Notes: generated by a model not told the origin, from the sequence alone. A stretch of DNA of 64,000 nucleotides from Blastocatellia bacterium (GCA_963726785.1 CAVSDJ010000007.1:2484615-2548614), one strand, 5' to 3'. Positions 57,453 to 64,000 are shown, counted from the stretch's first letter. Made by a program: numbers and translations.

Positions 57453-59030
57453 CTAACGGAAGCGGGCGCAATCTATGGCGTATTTTTTTACTTTGTAGCC
57501 GAGTATCCGCTCGGTCGTGTCCAGTAATTTTGCCGCGCGGGCGCGGTTGCCTCGCGCAGTCTTGAGCGCATCCAGAATCAAATCTTTCTCGTAAGCTTCG
57601 ACCGCCGTGACAAGCGACAATCTGGTTACTGTGCCGCTTGATGAAGCTGTCTGCAAAGTCGGTGGCAGGTGATGCCCGTGTATGACGTTCCCGTCGCAGA
57701 CAAGCGCCGCGCGCTCGATGCAGTTTTCAAGCTCGCGCACGTTGCCCGGCCAGTGATAAGCCGTCAGCATGTCAATCGCAGGAGTCGAGATGCGCTTGAT
57801 GTTCTTGCCGTGCTCGTGCGAGTACTTCTCAAGGAAATGATCCGCCAGCAGCAACACATCGGGCTTTCGCTCTCTGAGCGGCGGCACGAATATGGTAAAA
57901 ACGTTGAGCCTGTAAAACAGGTCTTCGCGGAACGCGCCCTCGGTGATAGCTTTTTCCAATTCTTTGTTCGTAGCCACGATCAGCCTGACGTTGATCTTCA
58001 CGGTTTCGATGCCGCCCAATCGCTCGAACTCGCGCTCTTGCAACACGCGCAGCAGCTTCACCTGAGTCGAAAGATTCAAGTCGCCTATCTCATCCAAAAA
58101 CAGAGTGCCGCCTTCGGCCAAGTCGAAGCGACCTTTTTTGCGAGCCTGCGCTCCGGTGAACGCCCCCTTCTCGTAGCCGAAAAGTTCCGACTCGATCAAT
58201 GTTTCTGGCAGCGCGGCGCAGCTAACCTTGATCAACGGCTTGTTGGCTCTCGGCGAGTTGTAGTGAATAGAATGAGCGATCAACTCTTTGCCCGTTCCCG
58301 AATCGCCGCGTATCAACACGGTCGTGTTAGTGCGCGCGACCTGCGCGACTTGCTCGTAGACCAGACGCATCGGGCCACTGTTGCCTACTATGTTCGTGAA
58401 ATCGTATCGTTCTTTGAGTTCTTGCCGCAGGTGAATGTTCTCGTCCAACAAGCGTTGTCGCTCGGCTTCGACCGAACGCTGAACCTTGACCGCTTGAGCG
58501 ATCATCGAAGCTATCACGCGCAGAAAGCGGACCGTGCGATCATAATCGCGGTCTTTCTTGAAACGCAGGTCAATTCCGATAGCTCCTACGGACTTGCGAT
58601 TGAGAATGATCGGCACGCATACAAAAGTCAGCTCCTGCCTGCCCAGTTCTTTGCGCTGCGCCGCGCGATTCAAGAACAAGGGCTCGCGGCTGACCTGCGG
58701 CACGACTATATGTTTGCCGCTTTCGACAACGCGCCCCGTGATCCCTTCGCCAATCTTGTAGCGAGCGCGTTGCCCATCGGCTGTGATCCCGTTGGCCGCC
58801 TCTATGTGAAGCTCATCCGAATCATCGTGGAGCAAGGTCACAGTGCTGCGAATCATTCCGTGATGTTGTTCAAGTATCTCCAGCACGCGATGAAGCGCCG
58901 CCCTCAGATTGAGCGTAGTAGAAAGCGCCTGGCTCACATCGAGCAATGTGGTTAGCTTCCTTATTTCGCCTGTCTTGTCTGTCATTTGCAATCCTGATTT
59001 AGATAACGCAATCCCGGTCAGAGACTGCAT
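57453..59030 (-). CDS. sigma54-dependent activator, NifA-like (GAF-AAA+-HTH)
   Basis: GAF (GEGITG), [37 protein letters not shown], Fis-type HTH. Confidence 0.93.
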
Positions 59031-59145
59031 TGGCTTTCCTACAAAAACGGTACCGTGCTCTTATTTATTCGACATAATTGTATGCAGGCAAAAGAAAGGT
59101 CAGTCAACCCTTAATGGGCAAAAACTCGATCCTTGCGGAATATGT

Positions 59146-59205
59146 CAGTAGCCCGCGCGTAAGCAAGGGCTAAGACTTGCGCCCTTGCTTACGCGCGGGC
59201 TACCG
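59146..59205. repeat. REP-like palindrome (CAGTAGCCCGCGCGTAAGCAAGGGC...)
   Basis: Inverted repeat with GTAG end, related to 2834 and 63486 copies. Confidence 0.8.
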
Positions 59206-59348
59206 ATTCCGGAGCAAGCGAACTTTGCAAGCTGGATTACCGTATCACTTAACGAATAAATTACGTTTGCGAGCATGGTTTTTACAAAAAAGTGATTGAC
59301 TCAGTGATAGGCCGGGTGTTATACCATTAGCGACAAAGGATCTCTTTA

Positions 59349-59453
59349 ATGTTTATGAACCGCGCGATGTGTTGTATGTATTGCATCTGTTGTAGCGCGC
59401 CAGTGGCGCGCCGCGCGGAGCCTAAAGTGGAGATCCATCAGTGTAATACATAA
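59349..59453 (+). CDS. Cys/Met-rich leader peptide MFMNRAMCCMYCICCSAPVARRAEPKVEIHQCNT
   Basis: Manual translation; AAGGA RBS; followed by terminator and cys operon. Confidence 0.8.
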   Translation: MFMNRAMCCMYCICCSAPVARRAEPKVEIHQCNT

Positions 59454-59482
59454 GCGCTGAATCAAATTTAGAGTTCTCGGAT

Positions 59483-59525
59483 AACCCACCACAGGCACCG
59501 CGCCTCTGGTGGGTTTTTCGTTTTT
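59483..59525 (+). terminator. attenuator terminator of cys operon leader
   Basis: AACCCACCA.AGGC-ACCGC-GCCT.TGGTGGGTT followed by T tracts. Confidence 0.8.
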
Positions 59526-59542
59526 GGGCAGTTCGAGATGCT

Positions 59543-60370
59543 ATGAATGATCGGGCGGGAAAAATCGGAAAGATTTATTTGATCGGCGCAGGGCCGGGCG
59601 ACCCGAAACTGCTCACGATCAAGGCAGCCGAGTGCATAGCCGCTGCTGACGTGATCGTTTACGATTATCTGGTTAACCCGGAAGTGTTAGCGCATGCTCG
59701 GCGCGGCGCAGAGTTGATCTACGCGGGCAAACGCGCGGGCGAGCCTTCTGTTTCGCAATCCGAGATCAATCGCATAATCATCGAACAGGCTCAGGCGGGC
59801 CGCGTAGTCGCGCGGCTCAAAGGCGGCGACCCGTTCATATTTGGTCGCGGCGGCGAAGAGGCCGAAGCGCTCGTTCAGGCAGGCATCGAATGGGAAGTCA
59901 TACCGGGCATATCTTCGGGCGTAGCCGCTGCCGCATACTGTGGCATCCCTCTCACCCATCGCAATTACGCTTCGAGCGTTGCATTTTTCACAGGCCACGA
60001 TAATCCCAACAAAAACAGGCAAGCCGTTAACTGGCGGGTCGCCGGAAACGCTGCCGATACGCTTGTGATTTTCATGTGCGCTGAAACTATCGCAAAGATC
60101 GCGCGCGAACTCATAAATGGTGGCCGCGCGCCTCAGACGCCTATAGCCATCATCCGATGGGGAACCTACGAGCATCAGGAAATCTATTCAGGCTCGCTCG
60201 AAGAGATTGCGGCGGGCGAAATTGAGCGAATGCGCATCGAGCCGCCAGCCATCGCGATTGTCGGCGACGTTGTGTCGCTCAAAGACAAACTGCACTGGTT
60301 CGGCAATCCGGCGCTTGAATATTCGCTCGAAGAACTCGCCTGTGAAGGTTTAATCGGAGGAATCAAGTGA
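59543..60370 (+). CDS. cobA: uroporphyrinogen-III C-methyltransferase
   Basis: LIGAGPGDP.LLT, RLKGGDPFIFGRGGEE, IPLTHR. Confidence 0.95.
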   Translation: MNDRAGKIGKIYLIGAGPGDPKLLTIKAAECIAAADVIVYDYLVNPEVLAHARRGAELIYAGKRAGEPSVSQSEINRIIIEQAQAGRVVARLKGGDPFIFGRGGEEAEALVQAGIEWEVIPGISSGVAAAAYCGIPLTHRNYASSVAFFTGHDNPNKNRQAVNWRVAGNAADTLVIFMCAETIAKIARELINGGRAPQTPIAIIRWGTYEHQEIYSGSLEEIAAGEIERMRIEPPAIAIVGDVVSLKDKLHWFGNPALEYSLEELACEGLIGGIK

Positions 60371-61143
60371 TGCAGATTGAAAGTGAACTCGTCAGTCTCG
60401 CCTACAAACCCTCGAATAGAATAGAGGCCGCAGCCGTGCGCCTCGAAGACGCTACACCGGCAGAGACGCTCGCCTGGGCGTTTGATGAGTTTGGTGATCG
60501 CGCGGGAATTGCCACAGGGTTTGGCGCGGAAGGCATGGCGCTCATCCACATGGCAGTCCAGGTCAATCCGCATCCGAACATATTCTTTCTCGACACCGGC
60601 TTTCTTTTTCCAGAAACATACGAACTGCGCCGCCGCATCGAAGACCGTTACCAGATAGAGATTCGCGCCGTTCAAACTGCCGTCACGCCAGCCTCGCAAG
60701 AAGAGATGTTCGGGCCGAAGCTCTGGTCGCGCGACCCTGACCTCTGCTGCCGAATCAGAAAACTTGAACCGCTGAAAGAAGAGTTGAGCGAACTGAGCGC
60801 GTGGATAACGGCAATCCGGCGCGACCAGACCGCCGCGCGAGCAAGCGCCCGCGCAGTTGAATGGGACGCGCGCTGGCAGCTTGTGAAGGTCAATCCGCTC
60901 ATCCGTTTCAGCAAGCGCGATGTTTGGAGTTACATCTTGAAAAACGATGTGCCTTATAACCCGCTGCACGATGCGGGCTATCCGAGCATCGGCTGCACGC
61001 ACTGCACGCGCGCCGTCGGCGAAGGCGAAGACGAACGCGCAGGTCGCTGGTCTGGTCACGCGAAGACTGAATGCGGGCTTCACAGTGAAGCGCCGAAACT
61101 GAGTGAAAGGCCGAAACTGGTTCCGCTAAAAGTTCAGCTTTGA
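60367..61143 (+). CDS. cysH: (phospho)adenylyl-sulfate reductase
   Basis: LDTGFLFPET, CCRIRK.EPL, GYPSIGCTHCT, RAGRW, ECGLH. Confidence 0.95.
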   Translation: MMQIESELVSLAYKPSNRIEAAAVRLEDATPAETLAWAFDEFGDRAGIATGFGAEGMALIHMAVQVNPHPNIFFLDTGFLFPETYELRRRIEDRYQIEIRAVQTAVTPASQEEMFGPKLWSRDPDLCCRIRKLEPLKEELSELSAWITAIRRDQTAARASARAVEWDARWQLVKVNPLIRFSKRDVWSYILKNDVPYNPLHDAGYPSIGCTHCTRAVGEGEDERAGRWSGHAKTECGLHSEAPKLSERPKLVPLKVQL

Positions 61144-61179: not shown

Positions 61180-61767
61180 ATGGGAAGCAAAGGACAGGTA
61201 ATCTGGCTCACGGGTCTTTCGGGCGCGGGCAAAACTACGCTCGCTCGCGCGCTTCGCGGTGAGCTTACAGCTTTGGGGTATCGCGTTGAAACGCTCGACG
61301 GTGACGAGGTGCGCGAGAATTTGAGCCGTGGGCTTACATTCTCGAAAGAAGACCGCGAAACCAACGTCCGTCGCATAGGTTTCGTCGCGCGACTGCTGGC
61401 GCGCAATGGCGTAATAGTGCTCGCCTCAGCCATCTCGCCGTACCGGCAGTCCCGCGACGATGTTCGCCGCTCGGTTGAAAGCGACGGCGCGCAGTTCATT
61501 GAAGTTTTTGTCGGCTGTCCGCTTCAGGTATTGATCGAGCGCGATGTGAAAGGGCTCTACAAAAAAGCGCTCGCGGGCGAGATCGAAAATTTCACAGGCA
61601 TCAGCGACCCTTATGAAGTACCGCTCGCGCCTGATGTTGTGATTGACAGTTCCGCTGAATCGGTTGAAGAGAGCGCCGCGCTAATACTAGAGCGACTGAT
61701 CGAAAGCGGCGCGCTCGCAAACCGACAGACTCAACCAGCGGTTGAGTCTGTCGAAGCGGCGTATTGA
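61180..61767 (+). CDS. cysC: adenylyl-sulfate kinase
   Basis: [34 protein letters not shown]. Confidence 0.96.
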
Positions 61768-61783
61768 GATTTTGAGGTGAATC

Positions 61784-63403
61784 ATGAATATCGAAGAAGT
61801 CAAAAAACGCAAGGACGGGCTTGATGTAATTCACGACATCTATCGCTATGCGCAGCTTGGGCATAAGGCCGTAACGCCTGATGACGAGGCGCTGTTTCGC
61901 TGGCATGGCATCTATACGCAGAGGCCCGCCGAAGACGGATTTTTCATGGTTCGCCTCCGCATACCGGGCGGCGACCTGACGCCTGAGCAGTTGCGCCTGA
62001 TAGCCGATTTATCCAACGAACACGGGCGCGGGCTTGCTGACATAACAGTGCGGCAAAACATTCAGCTTCATTGGGTGAGAATCGAAAGCCTGCCCGACAT
62101 ACTTGATCGCCTGCGCGATATTGGGCTTTCGACGACCGAAGCTTGCGGCGACTGCGTGCGCAACATAATCAACTGCCCTGTGTCGGGCGCGGACGCACAT
62201 GAGCTTTACGACACGACTCCGCTCCTGCGCGAGATCAATGATTACTTCGTCGGCAACCGCGACTTCTCGAATCTGCCGCGCAAATTCAAAATCGCGGTCA
62301 CAGGCTGTCACGTGCGATGCGTTTATCCTGAGATCAACGACGTAGGCATATTCGCCGTGCGCGACCCGGAAGCGGGAGTCGCATTTCGCGCACGCGTCGG
62401 AGGCGGGCTTTCGACCACGCCGCGATTCTCGAAAGACCTCGGCGTTCTGGTCGGGCCGGATGAAGTAGTCGAGTTGTGCGCCGCAGTCGCATCGGTCTTT
62501 CGCGACGAAGGCAACCGCGCAAACCGCAAGCGCGCGCGATTGAAATTTCTCGTCGAGCAATGGGAGATACCTCGATTCCGCGAAGAGGTCGAAGCGCGAT
62601 TGGGGCGCAAACTTCGCCGCGCAGAAAGCCCGGATGCCGAACCGATAACAGAACGTGATCGCACGCATCTCGGCATACATCAGCAGCGCGAGCGGGGGCT
62701 TAATTACGTCGGCATCTCGATACTTGGCGGTCGAACGTCGGGCGATGAGTTGAAGCGATTGGCCACGCTCGCCGAAGATTATGGCAGCGGTCGCGTGCGA
62801 ACTACGAACACACAAAACATAATCCTGCTTGATGTGCCCGATCAGAAGCTCAGTTCGCTCAGGCAAGAACTTGACCGTAGCCATCTCGATTACAAGCCGA
62901 GTTGGGCGCGTCGCGGGATAATCGCTTGCACGGGCGTTCAATTCTGCAAGCTCGCGCTTGCCGAAACGAAAAATCGCGCGGTCGAGTTGGATGAGTATCT
63001 CGCAAATAATGTCGCTTTAGACGACGGAGTTCGCATCAGCGTCACGGGATGTCCGAACTCTTGCGGCCAACATCACATTTGCGACGTAGGACTTGAGGGG
63101 TCGCTGACGACCATCAACGGCGTGAAGCGAGAGACGTTTCAGGTATTTTTAGGCGGCGGCGTAGGCTTACACGAAACCTTTGGCCGCCGAGTAGGCGCGC
63201 GCATTCCTTCAGATGAACTTGCGGAATCGCTTGCGCGATTGTTTGCGCGGTACAAGGAAGACCATACGCCCGACGAGACATTTCAAGAATACTGTTTGCG
63301 ACACAGCAATGAGGAGTTGGTCTCATATCTGGCTCCGCCCTTAGCCGTAACCGATACTGCGGCAACACAAGCGGAGGCCAAGTCAAATAATCTCTGTAGT
63401 TGA
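61784..63403 (+). CDS. sir: ferredoxin-dependent sulfite (nitrite) reductase
   Basis: GIYTQR, FMVRLRIPGG, NLPRKFK, ACTG..FC, TGCPNSC; position in cys operon. Confidence 0.88.
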   Translation: MNIEEVKKRKDGLDVIHDIYRYAQLGHKAVTPDDEALFRWHGIYTQRPAEDGFFMVRLRIPGGDLTPEQLRLIADLSNEHGRGLADITVRQNIQLHWVRIESLPDILDRLRDIGLSTTEACGDCVRNIINCPVSGADAHELYDTTPLLREINDYFVGNRDFSNLPRKFKIAVTGCHVRCVYPEINDVGIFAVRDPEAGVAFRARVGGGLSTTPRFSKDLGVLVGPDEVVELCAAVASVFRDEGNRANRKRARLKFLVEQWEIPRFREEVEARLGRKLRRAESPDAEPITERDRTHLGIHQQRERGLNYVGISILGGRTSGDELKRLATLAEDYGSGRVRTTNTQNIILLDVPDQKLSSLRQELDRSHLDYKPSWARRGIIACTGVQFCKLALAETKNRAVELDEYLANNVALDDGVRISVTGCPNSCGQHHICDVGLEGSLTTINGVKRETFQVFLGGGVGLHETFGRRVGARIPSDELAESLARLFARYKEDHTPDETFQEYCLRHSNEELVSYLAPPLAVTDTAATQAEAKSNNLCS

Positions 63404-63441: not shown

Positions 63442-63481
63442 TCAGCTTCGCCCTTTGCAAAGGGCGAAGCTGATTTTTTTT
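63442..63481 (+). terminator. intrinsic terminator after sir
   Basis: TCAGCTTCGCCCTTT..AAAGGGCGAAGCTGA followed by T8. Confidence 0.85.
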
Positions 63482-63485
63482 GTTT

Positions 63486-63551
63486 CAGTAGCCCGACCGT
63501 CAGGGAGGGCGCGAATGAGCACTCACGCCCTCCCTGACGGTCGGGCTACTG
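63486..63551. repeat. REP-like palindrome, copy 2
   Basis: Near-identical arms to 2834-2896. Confidence 0.85.
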
Positions 63552-63779
63552 TTGGGCTAACTCCCTTGCCCTGTATCATTACGTCAAATTGACGCCTGCC
63601 CGTTTATCAAATGATAAAGATTAATTATTTGCCCGCTTCCGGGAATCGTGGTATCCACTATAAGTCTTCAAGAATCTTAGAAGATCAAGATTTACAACGA
63701 AATCATCAAAGCCGCTTCCGTAGGACGAGATGTTGAGTTGCGGAAGCGATGAACTTCAAGGGGCTGCGGATTGAGAGTT

Positions 63780-63914
63780 ATGAATTTGCACTCGGATCAA
63801 ATATTCCGAACGAAGTCAGAGCGCATATCTGTTGTCGCTCTGCATTCTGTGCTCGTTAAATGGCTCATCAATATTATTGTAGTCAGCCTTATTCTGCTCA
63901 ACAGCAGCGGATGA
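63780..63914 (+). CDS. putative Ile/Leu/Val-rich leader peptide (…VLVKWLINIIVVSLILLNSSG)
   Basis: Manual translation; followed by terminator with an overlapping antiterminator; true start uncertain. Confidence 0.55.
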   Translation: MNLHSDQIFRTKSERISVVALHSVLVKWLINIIVVSLILLNSSG

Positions 63915-63938
63915 TGGTGAACACCAAACAAGTTCTCC

Positions 63939-63976
63939 AAAAGGCCATCATCCAAAGCAAGCGATGATGGCCTTTT
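63939..63976 (+). terminator. terminator/attenuator hairpin
   Basis: AAAAGGCCATCATC-N10-GATGATGGCCTTTT. Confidence 0.75.
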
Positions 63977-64000
63977 GAATTTTACGAACAATCGATTTGA

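Follow-up and report, generated by a model that had tools for sequence, protein, structure and literature searches.

A probable cysteine-sensing leader-peptide attenuator with an intrinsic terminator upstream of cobA-cysH-cysC-sir in a family of Blastocatellia

Cysteine (Cys) leaders without terminators have been predicted in Mycobacterium, Propionibacterium and Bifidobacterium, according to the accessible part of a study from 2005 (PMC1262725), and the available text of a later work on mycobacteria describes leaderless polycysteine open reading frames (ORFs) that act by making the next gene's ribosome-binding site accessible (Canestrari et al., bioRxiv 10.1101/834739). In Rhodobacterales, the accessible portion of another report presents uORFC-8-2, a Cys upstream ORF (uORF) with a terminator located 5′ of cysS (PMC8632094), while almost none of the attenuators predicted in Acidobacteria had been assigned a function in a survey of 2010, as far as its available text goes (PMC2965389). 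The control of sulfur assimilation in Acidobacteria, which are abundant and hard-to-grow soil bacteria, is essentially uncharted. Here we describe a leader that precedes a cobA-cysH-cysC-sir operon in a stretch of 64,000 nucleotides (nt) of a Blastocatellia bacterium (GCA_963726785.1, CAVSDJ010000007.1:2484615-2548614), a stretch that will be referred to as the window. An earlier note, made from this DNA alone, had attributed to it a full trp-style logic for Cys; every sequence-level component of such a logic is present in the window and is conserved with compensatory changes across the family. Based on these data, the leader is very likely a leader-peptide (ribosome-mediated) transcription attenuator that senses charged tRNA-Cys and controls cobA-cysH-cysC-sir. 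The same note knew of no terminator-type case for these genes in this lineage, and this holds in the literature searched, where the poly-Cys leaders of Actinobacteria are, in the accessible parts of the sources, either without terminators or translational; no Cys leader was found to be described for Acidobacteria in this search, which left subscription journals and supplements outside its scope.

The leader ORF (59349-59453; all features are on the forward strand unless stated) has 34 codons, ends with a TAA stop at 59451-59453 and is translated as MFMNRAMCCMYCICCSAPVARRAEPKVEIHQCNT, with four Met and five Cys within codons 8-15. The putative regulatory Cys codons are codons 8, 9, 12, 14 and 15 (59370-59393), placed at 59370-59372, 59373-59375, 59382-59384, 59388-59390 and 59391-59393 by direct inspection and in the ORF list, and a Shine-Dalgarno (SD)-like AAGGA (59336-59340) is found about 8 nt 5′ of the ATG, in agreement with the 34-residue ORF, the five Cys in eight codons, the four Met and the ribosome-binding site that had been noted before. 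Directly 3′ of the last Cys codon, the fold and the pair counts identified a hairpin, P2 (59395-59411), of sequence GCGCGCC-AGT-GGCGCGC. It is followed by region 2 (59413-59436; fold, duplex energies and pair counts), in which the 5′ strand of the antiterminator (59413-59430) overlaps the 3′ strand of a putative protector helix, P1 (59423-59436). The intrinsic terminator (59485-59525), detected by folding and by a terminator scan, comprises a 5′ arm (region 3, 59485-59496), a loop (59497-59501), a 3′ arm (region 4, 59502-59513) and a U tract (59514-59525) that reads TTTTTCGTTTTT up to 59525; the U-tailed terminator of the earlier note was thus recovered by folding and, in its inner stem, by the scanner. 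The antiterminator pairs 59413-59430 (GCGCGGAGCCTAAAGTGG) with 59486-59503 (CCACCACAGGCACCGCGC), that is, with the 5′ arm and loop of the terminator, in 6+4+4 pairs with a duplex energy of -19.6 kcal/mol, so that both structures are mutually exclusive. The fold of 59330-59545 has a minimum free energy (MFE) of -80.9 kcal/mol (z = -4.13), and none of 200 shuffled sequences was as stable.

Homologues of this element were found throughout the family. A covariance model, built from P1, P2 and the terminator on 25 aligned leaders, gave one forward match each in 51 of the 53 genomes of the window's family, covering 20 of 20 genera, and neither of the two genomes that lack a leader match, one of which is 72% complete, showed a CysH match to the protein of the window. 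The start of cobA lies at most 120 nt from the leader in 46 of the 49 loci that had at least 300 nt of downstream sequence, with cysH usually next. In a DNA search of 41 related genomes a match was obtained in 24, many of the matches beginning inside the leader, and a short ORF with at least three Cys preceded cobA in 18 of 20 loci; one of the remaining two is cut by the end of the contig and the other has an intervening gene. Three loci (L161, L189 and L190) carry a small extra gene between the Cys leader and cobA, which in L161 encodes a hemerythrin HHE domain.

The coding signal was evaluated in 52 distinct homologues. In all of them an ATG-started ORF with 2 to 7 Cys codons lies just 5′ of the GC hairpin P2. 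No stop interrupts the Cys frame between the ATG and the end of region 2 in 51 copies, the single exception being a copy from another family with an earlier stop; of the two remaining frames, one is open in 1 copy and the other in 17. The codon four positions 5′ of P2 encodes Cys in 52/52 (TGT in 14 and TGC in 38), and the positions adjoining it are Cys in 50 and 46 copies, with variation between TGT and TGC. Altogether the leaders contain 158 TGT and 84 TGC, and the long ORFs of the window's genome 3728 TGT and 9136 TGC, which means that the leaders are biased toward the Cys codon that is less used in this genome. The rest of the peptide is variable: the N-termini and the interspersed residues (I, M, N, S, Y) change among leaders, the length ranges from 19 to 46 residues and the Cys codons start anywhere between codons 6 and 20. 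Likewise, the four Met of the window are not kept across homologues, the Cys codons being the only ones conserved as regulatory codons.

Downstream of the Cys run there is a block, GAGCCUUUAGUGGAG, that hardly varies; its translation is EPLVE in part of the genera and RAFSGG or EAFDGG in others, where the frame is shifted by one base, and the stop codon is located 10-28 nt 3′ of it, or 5′ of it in one other family. Since the block is read in two frames while its nucleotides are kept, it is conserved as RNA and not as peptide. An ORF that remains open across GAGCCUUUAGUGGAG in either frame is the pattern expected where the passage of a ribosome is what counts and its peptide product is of no consequence, and this is the strongest single argument for an attenuator. 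The open Cys frame is indirect evidence that the leader is translated, and ribosomes would stall at its Cys codons. The same data bear on the idea that the ORF encodes a functional Cys-rich micropeptide (a metal- or sulfur-binding or a precursor peptide) that is co-expressed with the cys operon and senses nothing. Such a peptide would account for an ORF that is conserved and Cys-rich in 52/52 copies, many of which display a motif C-A-P-x-A-R after the Cys run. However, this motif coincides with P2 and is replaced in several genera by other complementary sequences (GUAUGC..GCAUAC, GCGCGG..CCGCGC), the C-terminal half of the peptide is the part read in two frames, and neither the N-terminal part nor the length is maintained, which makes a micropeptide highly improbable.

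The structure of the RNA was analyzed by counting pairs in a model-fitted alignment of 57 rows, 55 of them distinct. Counted in this alignment, which was fitted to the off-state model and hence favours that structure, and on related sequences, whose copies are not independent, the off-state (P1, P2 and terminator) was paired in 88.1% of 1811 cells, compared to 34-50% in slid controls; none of 500 shuffles reached the observed values and 22 of the 34 pairs changed on both sides. The cells of the terminator helix were paired in 99.4% (6 of 12 pairs changed on both sides), those of P2 in 98.8% (4 of 6), those of the proximal part of P1 in 86.4% (5 of 8) and those of its distal part, the register of which differs between genera, in 64.4% (6 of 7). 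The antiterminator, written by hand as 15 pairs for these counts, was paired in 82.4% of 748 cells vs 26-50% when slid, with compensatory changes at 133-316 (GC 30, AU 12), 141-308 (AU 34, GC 7) and 132-318 (GC 21, AU 5). Cognate strands formed more stable duplexes than non-cognate ones for the antiterminator (mean -19.6 vs -16.7 kcal/mol; z -3.5 against shuffled strands) as well as for P1 (-17.6 vs -15.3 kcal/mol; z -2.2). In the lineage L005/L141 the strands changed together: region 2 has GCU in place of GCC, the terminator 5′ arm AGC in place of GGC, its 3′ arm GCU in place of GCC, and region 1 AAAGCUU in place of AAGGCUU. The expectation of conservation and covariation in relatives was therefore borne out by the 51 of 53 family genomes and by compensatory changes in the terminator, the antiterminator and the putative protector helix alike, and the antiterminator pairs proposed in the earlier note were found to be conserved.

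The alternative structures also behaved as that note had anticipated. The full leader folded without a ribosome contained the terminator in 52/52 copies and the antiterminator in none; when a ribosome was assumed to stall at the first or at the last Cys codon and folding in silico was restricted to the RNA 3′ of it, with transcription halted before the terminator 3′ arm, the antiterminator was predicted in 52/52 and 51/52 copies, respectively. Region 2 starts 19-28 nt 3′ of the last Cys codon in all homologues, beyond the expected footprint of the ribosome. Altogether, a sensor coupled to a terminator/antiterminator switch appears very probable.

Two other explanations of these structures were considered. 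In the first, the leader works chiefly on translation or via Rho, in the manner of mycobacteria, and the hairpin and U tract terminate transcription inefficiently here. The poly-Cys leaders that have been studied experimentally do expose the downstream ribosome-binding site, as described in the accessible text (bioRxiv 10.1101/834739), and intrinsic termination is not known to have been studied in this lineage; conversely, a GC-rich stem of 12 pairs followed by a U tract is retained in 52/52 copies, it ends 18 nt 5′ of the cobA start in the window and 18-50 nt across copies without including the start region of cobA, and similar structures with a hairpin and U tract close the operon (63444-63486) and the neighbouring ilv leader. 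This explanation is considered very unlikely.

The second holds that the leader is a riboswitch, or binds a protein, and senses a sulfur metabolite directly, the ORF being incidental. Other phyla do use riboswitches (S-box) to control sulfur metabolism, and an RNA structure so strongly conserved, with an expression platform formed by terminator and antiterminator, would suit this mechanism. Rfam covariance models, those of amino-acid leaders, T-boxes and SAM and further sulfur-related riboswitches included, were applied to 58900-59700 at E ≤10 and gave no match inside 59296-59545, and the three matches obtained fall on a palindrome (59136-59206) and are attributed to chance; furthermore, the helices are simple and lack a conserved multi-helix core, changes at the third base of the Cys codons preserve the amino acid, and no frame but that of Cys remains open. 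Direct sensing of a metabolite is thus very improbable.

The protector is the component in which the family departs from what had been predicted. The earlier note had assigned this role to CCGCGCG in codons 4-6 (59360-59366), which is indeed an exact 7-bp complement of 59412-59418, pairs with it in the MFE fold and lies within the expected footprint of a stalled ribosome; nevertheless, this pairing is confined to the genus of the window and absent from other genera, CCGCGCG being an extra, genus-specific strand. The family-wide competitor for region 2 is the 5′ untranslated region (UTR), in a strand that contains the SD-like AAGG and runs to the last base ahead of the AUG. In the window the 5′ strand of P1 (region 1, GGATCTCTTTA, 59338-59348) overlaps the SD, ends at the start codon and is paired with 59423-59436 in the MFE fold, with a duplex energy of -13.2 kcal/mol. 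Typically in the family UAAAGGCUU pairs with AAGCCUUUA and GGAUCUC with GGAGAUC, whereas in the window the proximal part of P1 was remodelled and the CCGCGCG:CGCGCGG pairing added. P1 was predicted in 40/52 nascent RNAs extending up to region 2 and in 37/52 RNAs behind a ribosome at the stop codon. It was not recovered by RNAalifold on a MAFFT alignment, because the 5′ region was misaligned, and it was regained through duplex energies and the model-fitted alignment. As its 5′ strand is upstream of the ORF, a stalled ribosome would have to prevent P1 by standing between its two strands; the arguments for and against P1 being a protector that is prevented in this way are, in our view, evenly balanced.

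A promoter-like site precedes the leader (59296-59325), with a -35 element TTGACT (59296-59301), an 18-nt spacer, a TG at 59317-59318 in the extended -10 position and a -10 element TATACC (59320-59325); the TTGACT-N18-TATACC reported before is therefore present, one base to the left of the start given for it. The -10 element ends 23 nt 5′ of the ATG, with the SD-like element between them. A motif TTGAC-N16-20-T[AG]TAnn is located 5′ of 40 of the 52 distinct homologous leaders, and its -10 end is mostly 20-43 nt from the ATG; three homologues showed distances of 0, 1 and 11 nt, in which an upstream in-frame ATG had been taken as the start.

On these grounds, the following mechanism can be hypothesized. 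Transcription would start a few bases past the -10 element (59320-59325) and a ribosome would begin to translate the leader ORF at 59349. Under a shortage of Cys-tRNA this ribosome would stall on the Cys codons (59370-59393), preventing P1 and leaving region 2 (59413-59430) free to pair with the terminator 5′ arm and loop (59486-59503) once these are made, so that no terminator would form and transcription would read through into cobA. When Cys-tRNA is plentiful the ribosome would run through region 2 to the stop, and region 2 would be either occupied or captured behind the ribosome by region 1 in the 5′ UTR and SD (59338-59348), to which CCGCGCG (59360-59366) would add in the window's genus; with region 2 unavailable, the terminator (59485-59513) and its U tract would form and transcription would stop. 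If the leader is not translated, P1 would form first and lead again to termination, and it would also bury the SD of the leader itself.

Apart from the limits of the pair counts mentioned above, several observations weigh against this mechanism. Some homologues have only 2-3 Cys codons, and in most genera other than that of the window the AAGG lies 3-4 nt 5′ of the ATG, which is a short SD with a short spacer. A consensus promoter scan gave no site in the leader region, because its rule needs a T as the final base of the -10 element, which TATACC fails. Small shares of the words of the leader stretch occur in five soil RNA runs, and read-length contigs from soil metatranscriptomes that belong to close relatives (90-99% alike) cover 59342-59471, 59373-59524, 59512-59662 and parts of cobA, although ends, starts, levels, strand and regulation are not readable from them. 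The stop codon lies about 20 nt 3′ of region 2 in most copies, so that, unlike in trp, a ribosome waiting there would leave region 2 uncovered and the termination branch rests on timing or on P1. P1, for its part, is not predicted in 12/52 copies, including two whole genera, and in the model-fitted alignment no more than 64% of the cells of its distal half are paired. When leaders cut before the terminator 3′ arm were folded at equilibrium with no ribosome present, the antiterminator was predicted in 29/52 copies vs 14/52 for P1, which implies that P1 can act as a protector only by forming first.

The last results, together with the position of the P1 5′ strand, which a ribosome stalled on the Cys codons (codon 6-20 onward) would not reach with its footprint, would favour a two-state logic with the same sensor, which is a variant within attenuation and not an alternative to it. 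Under this logic the antiterminator is the default and the terminator is permitted only by a ribosome that translates through region 2 in step with the polymerase; P1 would not be an anti-antiterminator but a lock that silences the SD of the leader after the first round of translation, or a stabiliser of the terminated leader RNA. This variant has to be set against the order of synthesis, since both strands of P1 emerge about 70 nt ahead of the terminator 5′ arm and the helix is found in the 40 nascent RNAs referred to above, against the compensatory changes in 12 of 16 P1 pairs, and against the complementarity of region 2 to both partners at once, region 2 having changed together with all of them in L005/L141. 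Weighing both sides, we consider the two-state logic rather doubtful, at about one chance in a handful or slightly better.

The genes downstream of the leader correspond to siroheme synthesis and to the reduction of activated sulfate to sulfide, that is, to the pathway of the amino acid that would be sensed. They encode CobA, a uroporphyrinogen-III C-methyltransferase of the siroheme branch (59543-60370; NF004790, 328.5 bits, cut-off 198), CysH, a phosphoadenylyl-sulfate (PAPS) reductase (60367-61143; NF002537, 271.8 bits, cut-off 154), CysC, an adenylyl-sulfate kinase (61180-61767; NF002059, 266.3 bits, cut-off 244), and a sulfite (or nitrite) reductase haemoprotein of the NirA/Sir family (61784-63403), the best NCBIfam models of which, NF007125 and NF007126, did not reach the equivalog cut-offs. 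Inspection of 63444-63486 revealed a hairpin and a U tract, the likely terminator of the operon. Two long palindromes at 59143-59206 and 63487-63552, with ends GTAGCCCG...CGGGCTAC, flank the operon, and as at least 130 occurrences of the pattern were counted in the genome they are a family of repeats resembling repetitive extragenic palindromes (REP-like), which accounts for the chance Rfam matches mentioned above. The gene at 57453-59030 (reverse strand) points away from the cys leader and encodes a sigma-54-dependent activator near to NifA, its score with that model being 528.7 bits for a cut-off of 528.85; no link of it to the attenuator was seen.

A second leader was noticed near the 3′ end of the window. 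At 63771-63983 (and at L200:367-2130) an ORF rich in Ile, Leu and Val, MRVMNLHSDQIFRTKSERISVVALHSVLVKWLINIIVVSLILLNSSG, is followed by a strong hairpin and a U tract (z = -5.05 for the fold of the region), and a gene for the large subunit of acetolactate synthase (TIGR00118, 844.6 bits) begins about 50 nt beyond the end of the window. This element is probably an ilvB leader-peptide attenuator.

The occurrence of comparable leaders in the class and in the phylum was also evaluated. The model matched 44 of 151 genomes of the class at E ≤0.01, namely the window's own genome, 33 of the 34 further genomes of the family and 10 of 116 outside it. Eleven places outside the family were inspected and comprised eight Cys-run ORFs with terminators, two His-run leaders and one unrelated sequence. 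Two of the eight are homologous Cys leaders that precede cobA in another family; in these the stop codon lies just before region 2, which means that a terminating ribosome would cover region 2. The remaining Cys-run leaders precede PALP enzymes (cysK/M-like), a PAPS reductase accompanied by a TauE gene and two DUF1684 proteins. Among 151 genomes of the phylum, three weak matches were obtained outside the class, all of them Cys-run leaders with terminators, two located before ATP sulfurylase.

Some of these loci deserve mention on their own. The DUF1684 proteins of L177 and L178, from another family of the class, are preceded by long poly-Cys leaders that carry terminators, which hints that DUF1684 is tied to the supply of cysteine or sulfur. 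In L175 a Cys-run leader with a terminator is followed by the gene for a PALP enzyme and then by genes with a JAB domain and ThiS/ThiF, a set that presumably resembles the sulfur-carrier route to cysteine (CysM, Mec, CysO). The His-run ORFs were found in two loci of other families of the class, L172 (MIRNLVHGHHAYWHHHIGGG...) and L179 (MIFSSTHHHHSLLHAGHHGG...), both with terminators and upstream of genes with a tRNA-synt_His domain (HisZ- or HisS-like), and are probably histidine leader attenuators.

Unrelated Cys-run leaders with terminators occur in at least seven other families, before cobA-cysH, ATP sulfurylase, cysK/CysM-like genes, the PAPS reductase with TauE and DUF1684. This would be compatible with a phylum-wide "cysteine ribulon" of terminator-type Cys leaders in Acidobacteriota, to which the window's family would add a new protector design built on the SD; taken together, these two propositions are advanced tentatively and we place them somewhat below an even chance.

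In the window's own genome, a search for small ORFs with at least four Cys in eight codons and a terminator-like hairpin retained 16 of 360 candidates, of which only the leader of the window was convincing. Six of the 16 are copies of an identical ORF of 11 codons, MLHKMNCCCEC, that occurs six times within a repeated element (e.g., C7:501626-501661). The same genome gave no convincing candidate when leaders with a high content of His, Trp, Phe, Thr, Met, Tyr, Ile, Pro, Asn, Gln, Lys, Asp or Glu were sought under strict rules; these rules missed the ilv leader, which was seen by eye. Pattern matches in public genomes (119 stretches listed) were mostly due to chance or unrelated, from GC-rich genomes. 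A repeated element of Solirubrobacterales metagenome-assembled genomes, ...CWCAPMARRNRIAF... in one frame, appeared many times among the matches listed, in loci titled Solirubrobacterales or Actinomycetes; it is unrelated to the leader and matched the pattern due to its GCGCGCC..GGCGCGC hairpin.

If the proposed mechanism is true, a single helix would serve both as an anti-antiterminator and as a lock on the translation of the leader, which no description of classical attenuators includes, and a stalled ribosome would exert its effect from a position between the strands of P1 and not by covering one of them. The element provides a testable cysteine sensor with its four strands defined to the base, a covariance model that recovers it from nearly every genome of the family, and a lead to further genes of unknown function that may be Cys-regulated, such as those encoding DUF1684 proteins. 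By sequence evidence, classical attenuation for Cys, Ile/Leu/Val and His would be in regular use in Acidobacteriota, and terminator-type cysteine attenuation would be extended beyond the single motif predicted for cysS in Alphaproteobacteria.

Compared to the described systems, a Cys-specific leader-peptide attenuator of the terminator type, conserved through a family of Blastocatellia and with a putative protector drawn from its own SD region, appears to be new, a conclusion that is well supported at the level of the sequence. With the mycobacterial polycysteine ORFs and the Cys leaders of other Actinobacteria it would have in common, judging from the accessible parts of those reports, a Cys run in a short upstream ORF, stalling as the means to sense cysteine, the control of cysteine and sulfur operons and the presence at several loci. 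The mycobacterial ORFs, as described there, are leaderless, whereas the leader of the window has a 5′ UTR and an SD; and the Cys leaders of Actinobacteria are, in the available text of PMC1262725, without terminators, in contrast to the canonical terminator/antiterminator pair found here. The leader also resembles uORFC-8-2 of Rhodobacterales, for which the accessible description gives a uORF with tandem Cys codons, a stem that holds or follows them, a terminator stem with a U run and a proposed ribosome-mediated attenuator. It differs in that it precedes cysS, belongs to another phylum and has two Cys codons at positions 14-15, and in that its available description includes no protector between SD and antiterminator; this distinction is drawn from the description. 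The classical attenuators (trp, his, leu, thr, ilv and phe in Proteobacteria, trp and ilvB in Actinobacteria) share with the leader of the window a short ORF in which codons for the end product are clustered, an intrinsic terminator and an overlapping antiterminator, as well as a protector helix if P1 has this role, and the genes that they control make the amino acid that is sensed. Unlike these, the leader of the window is directed to cysteine, belongs to Acidobacteriota (class Blastocatellia) and matches no Rfam leader, and in its family region 1 is the leader's own SD and 5′ UTR instead of the stretch that contains the regulatory codons, with a stop codon placed well past region 2.

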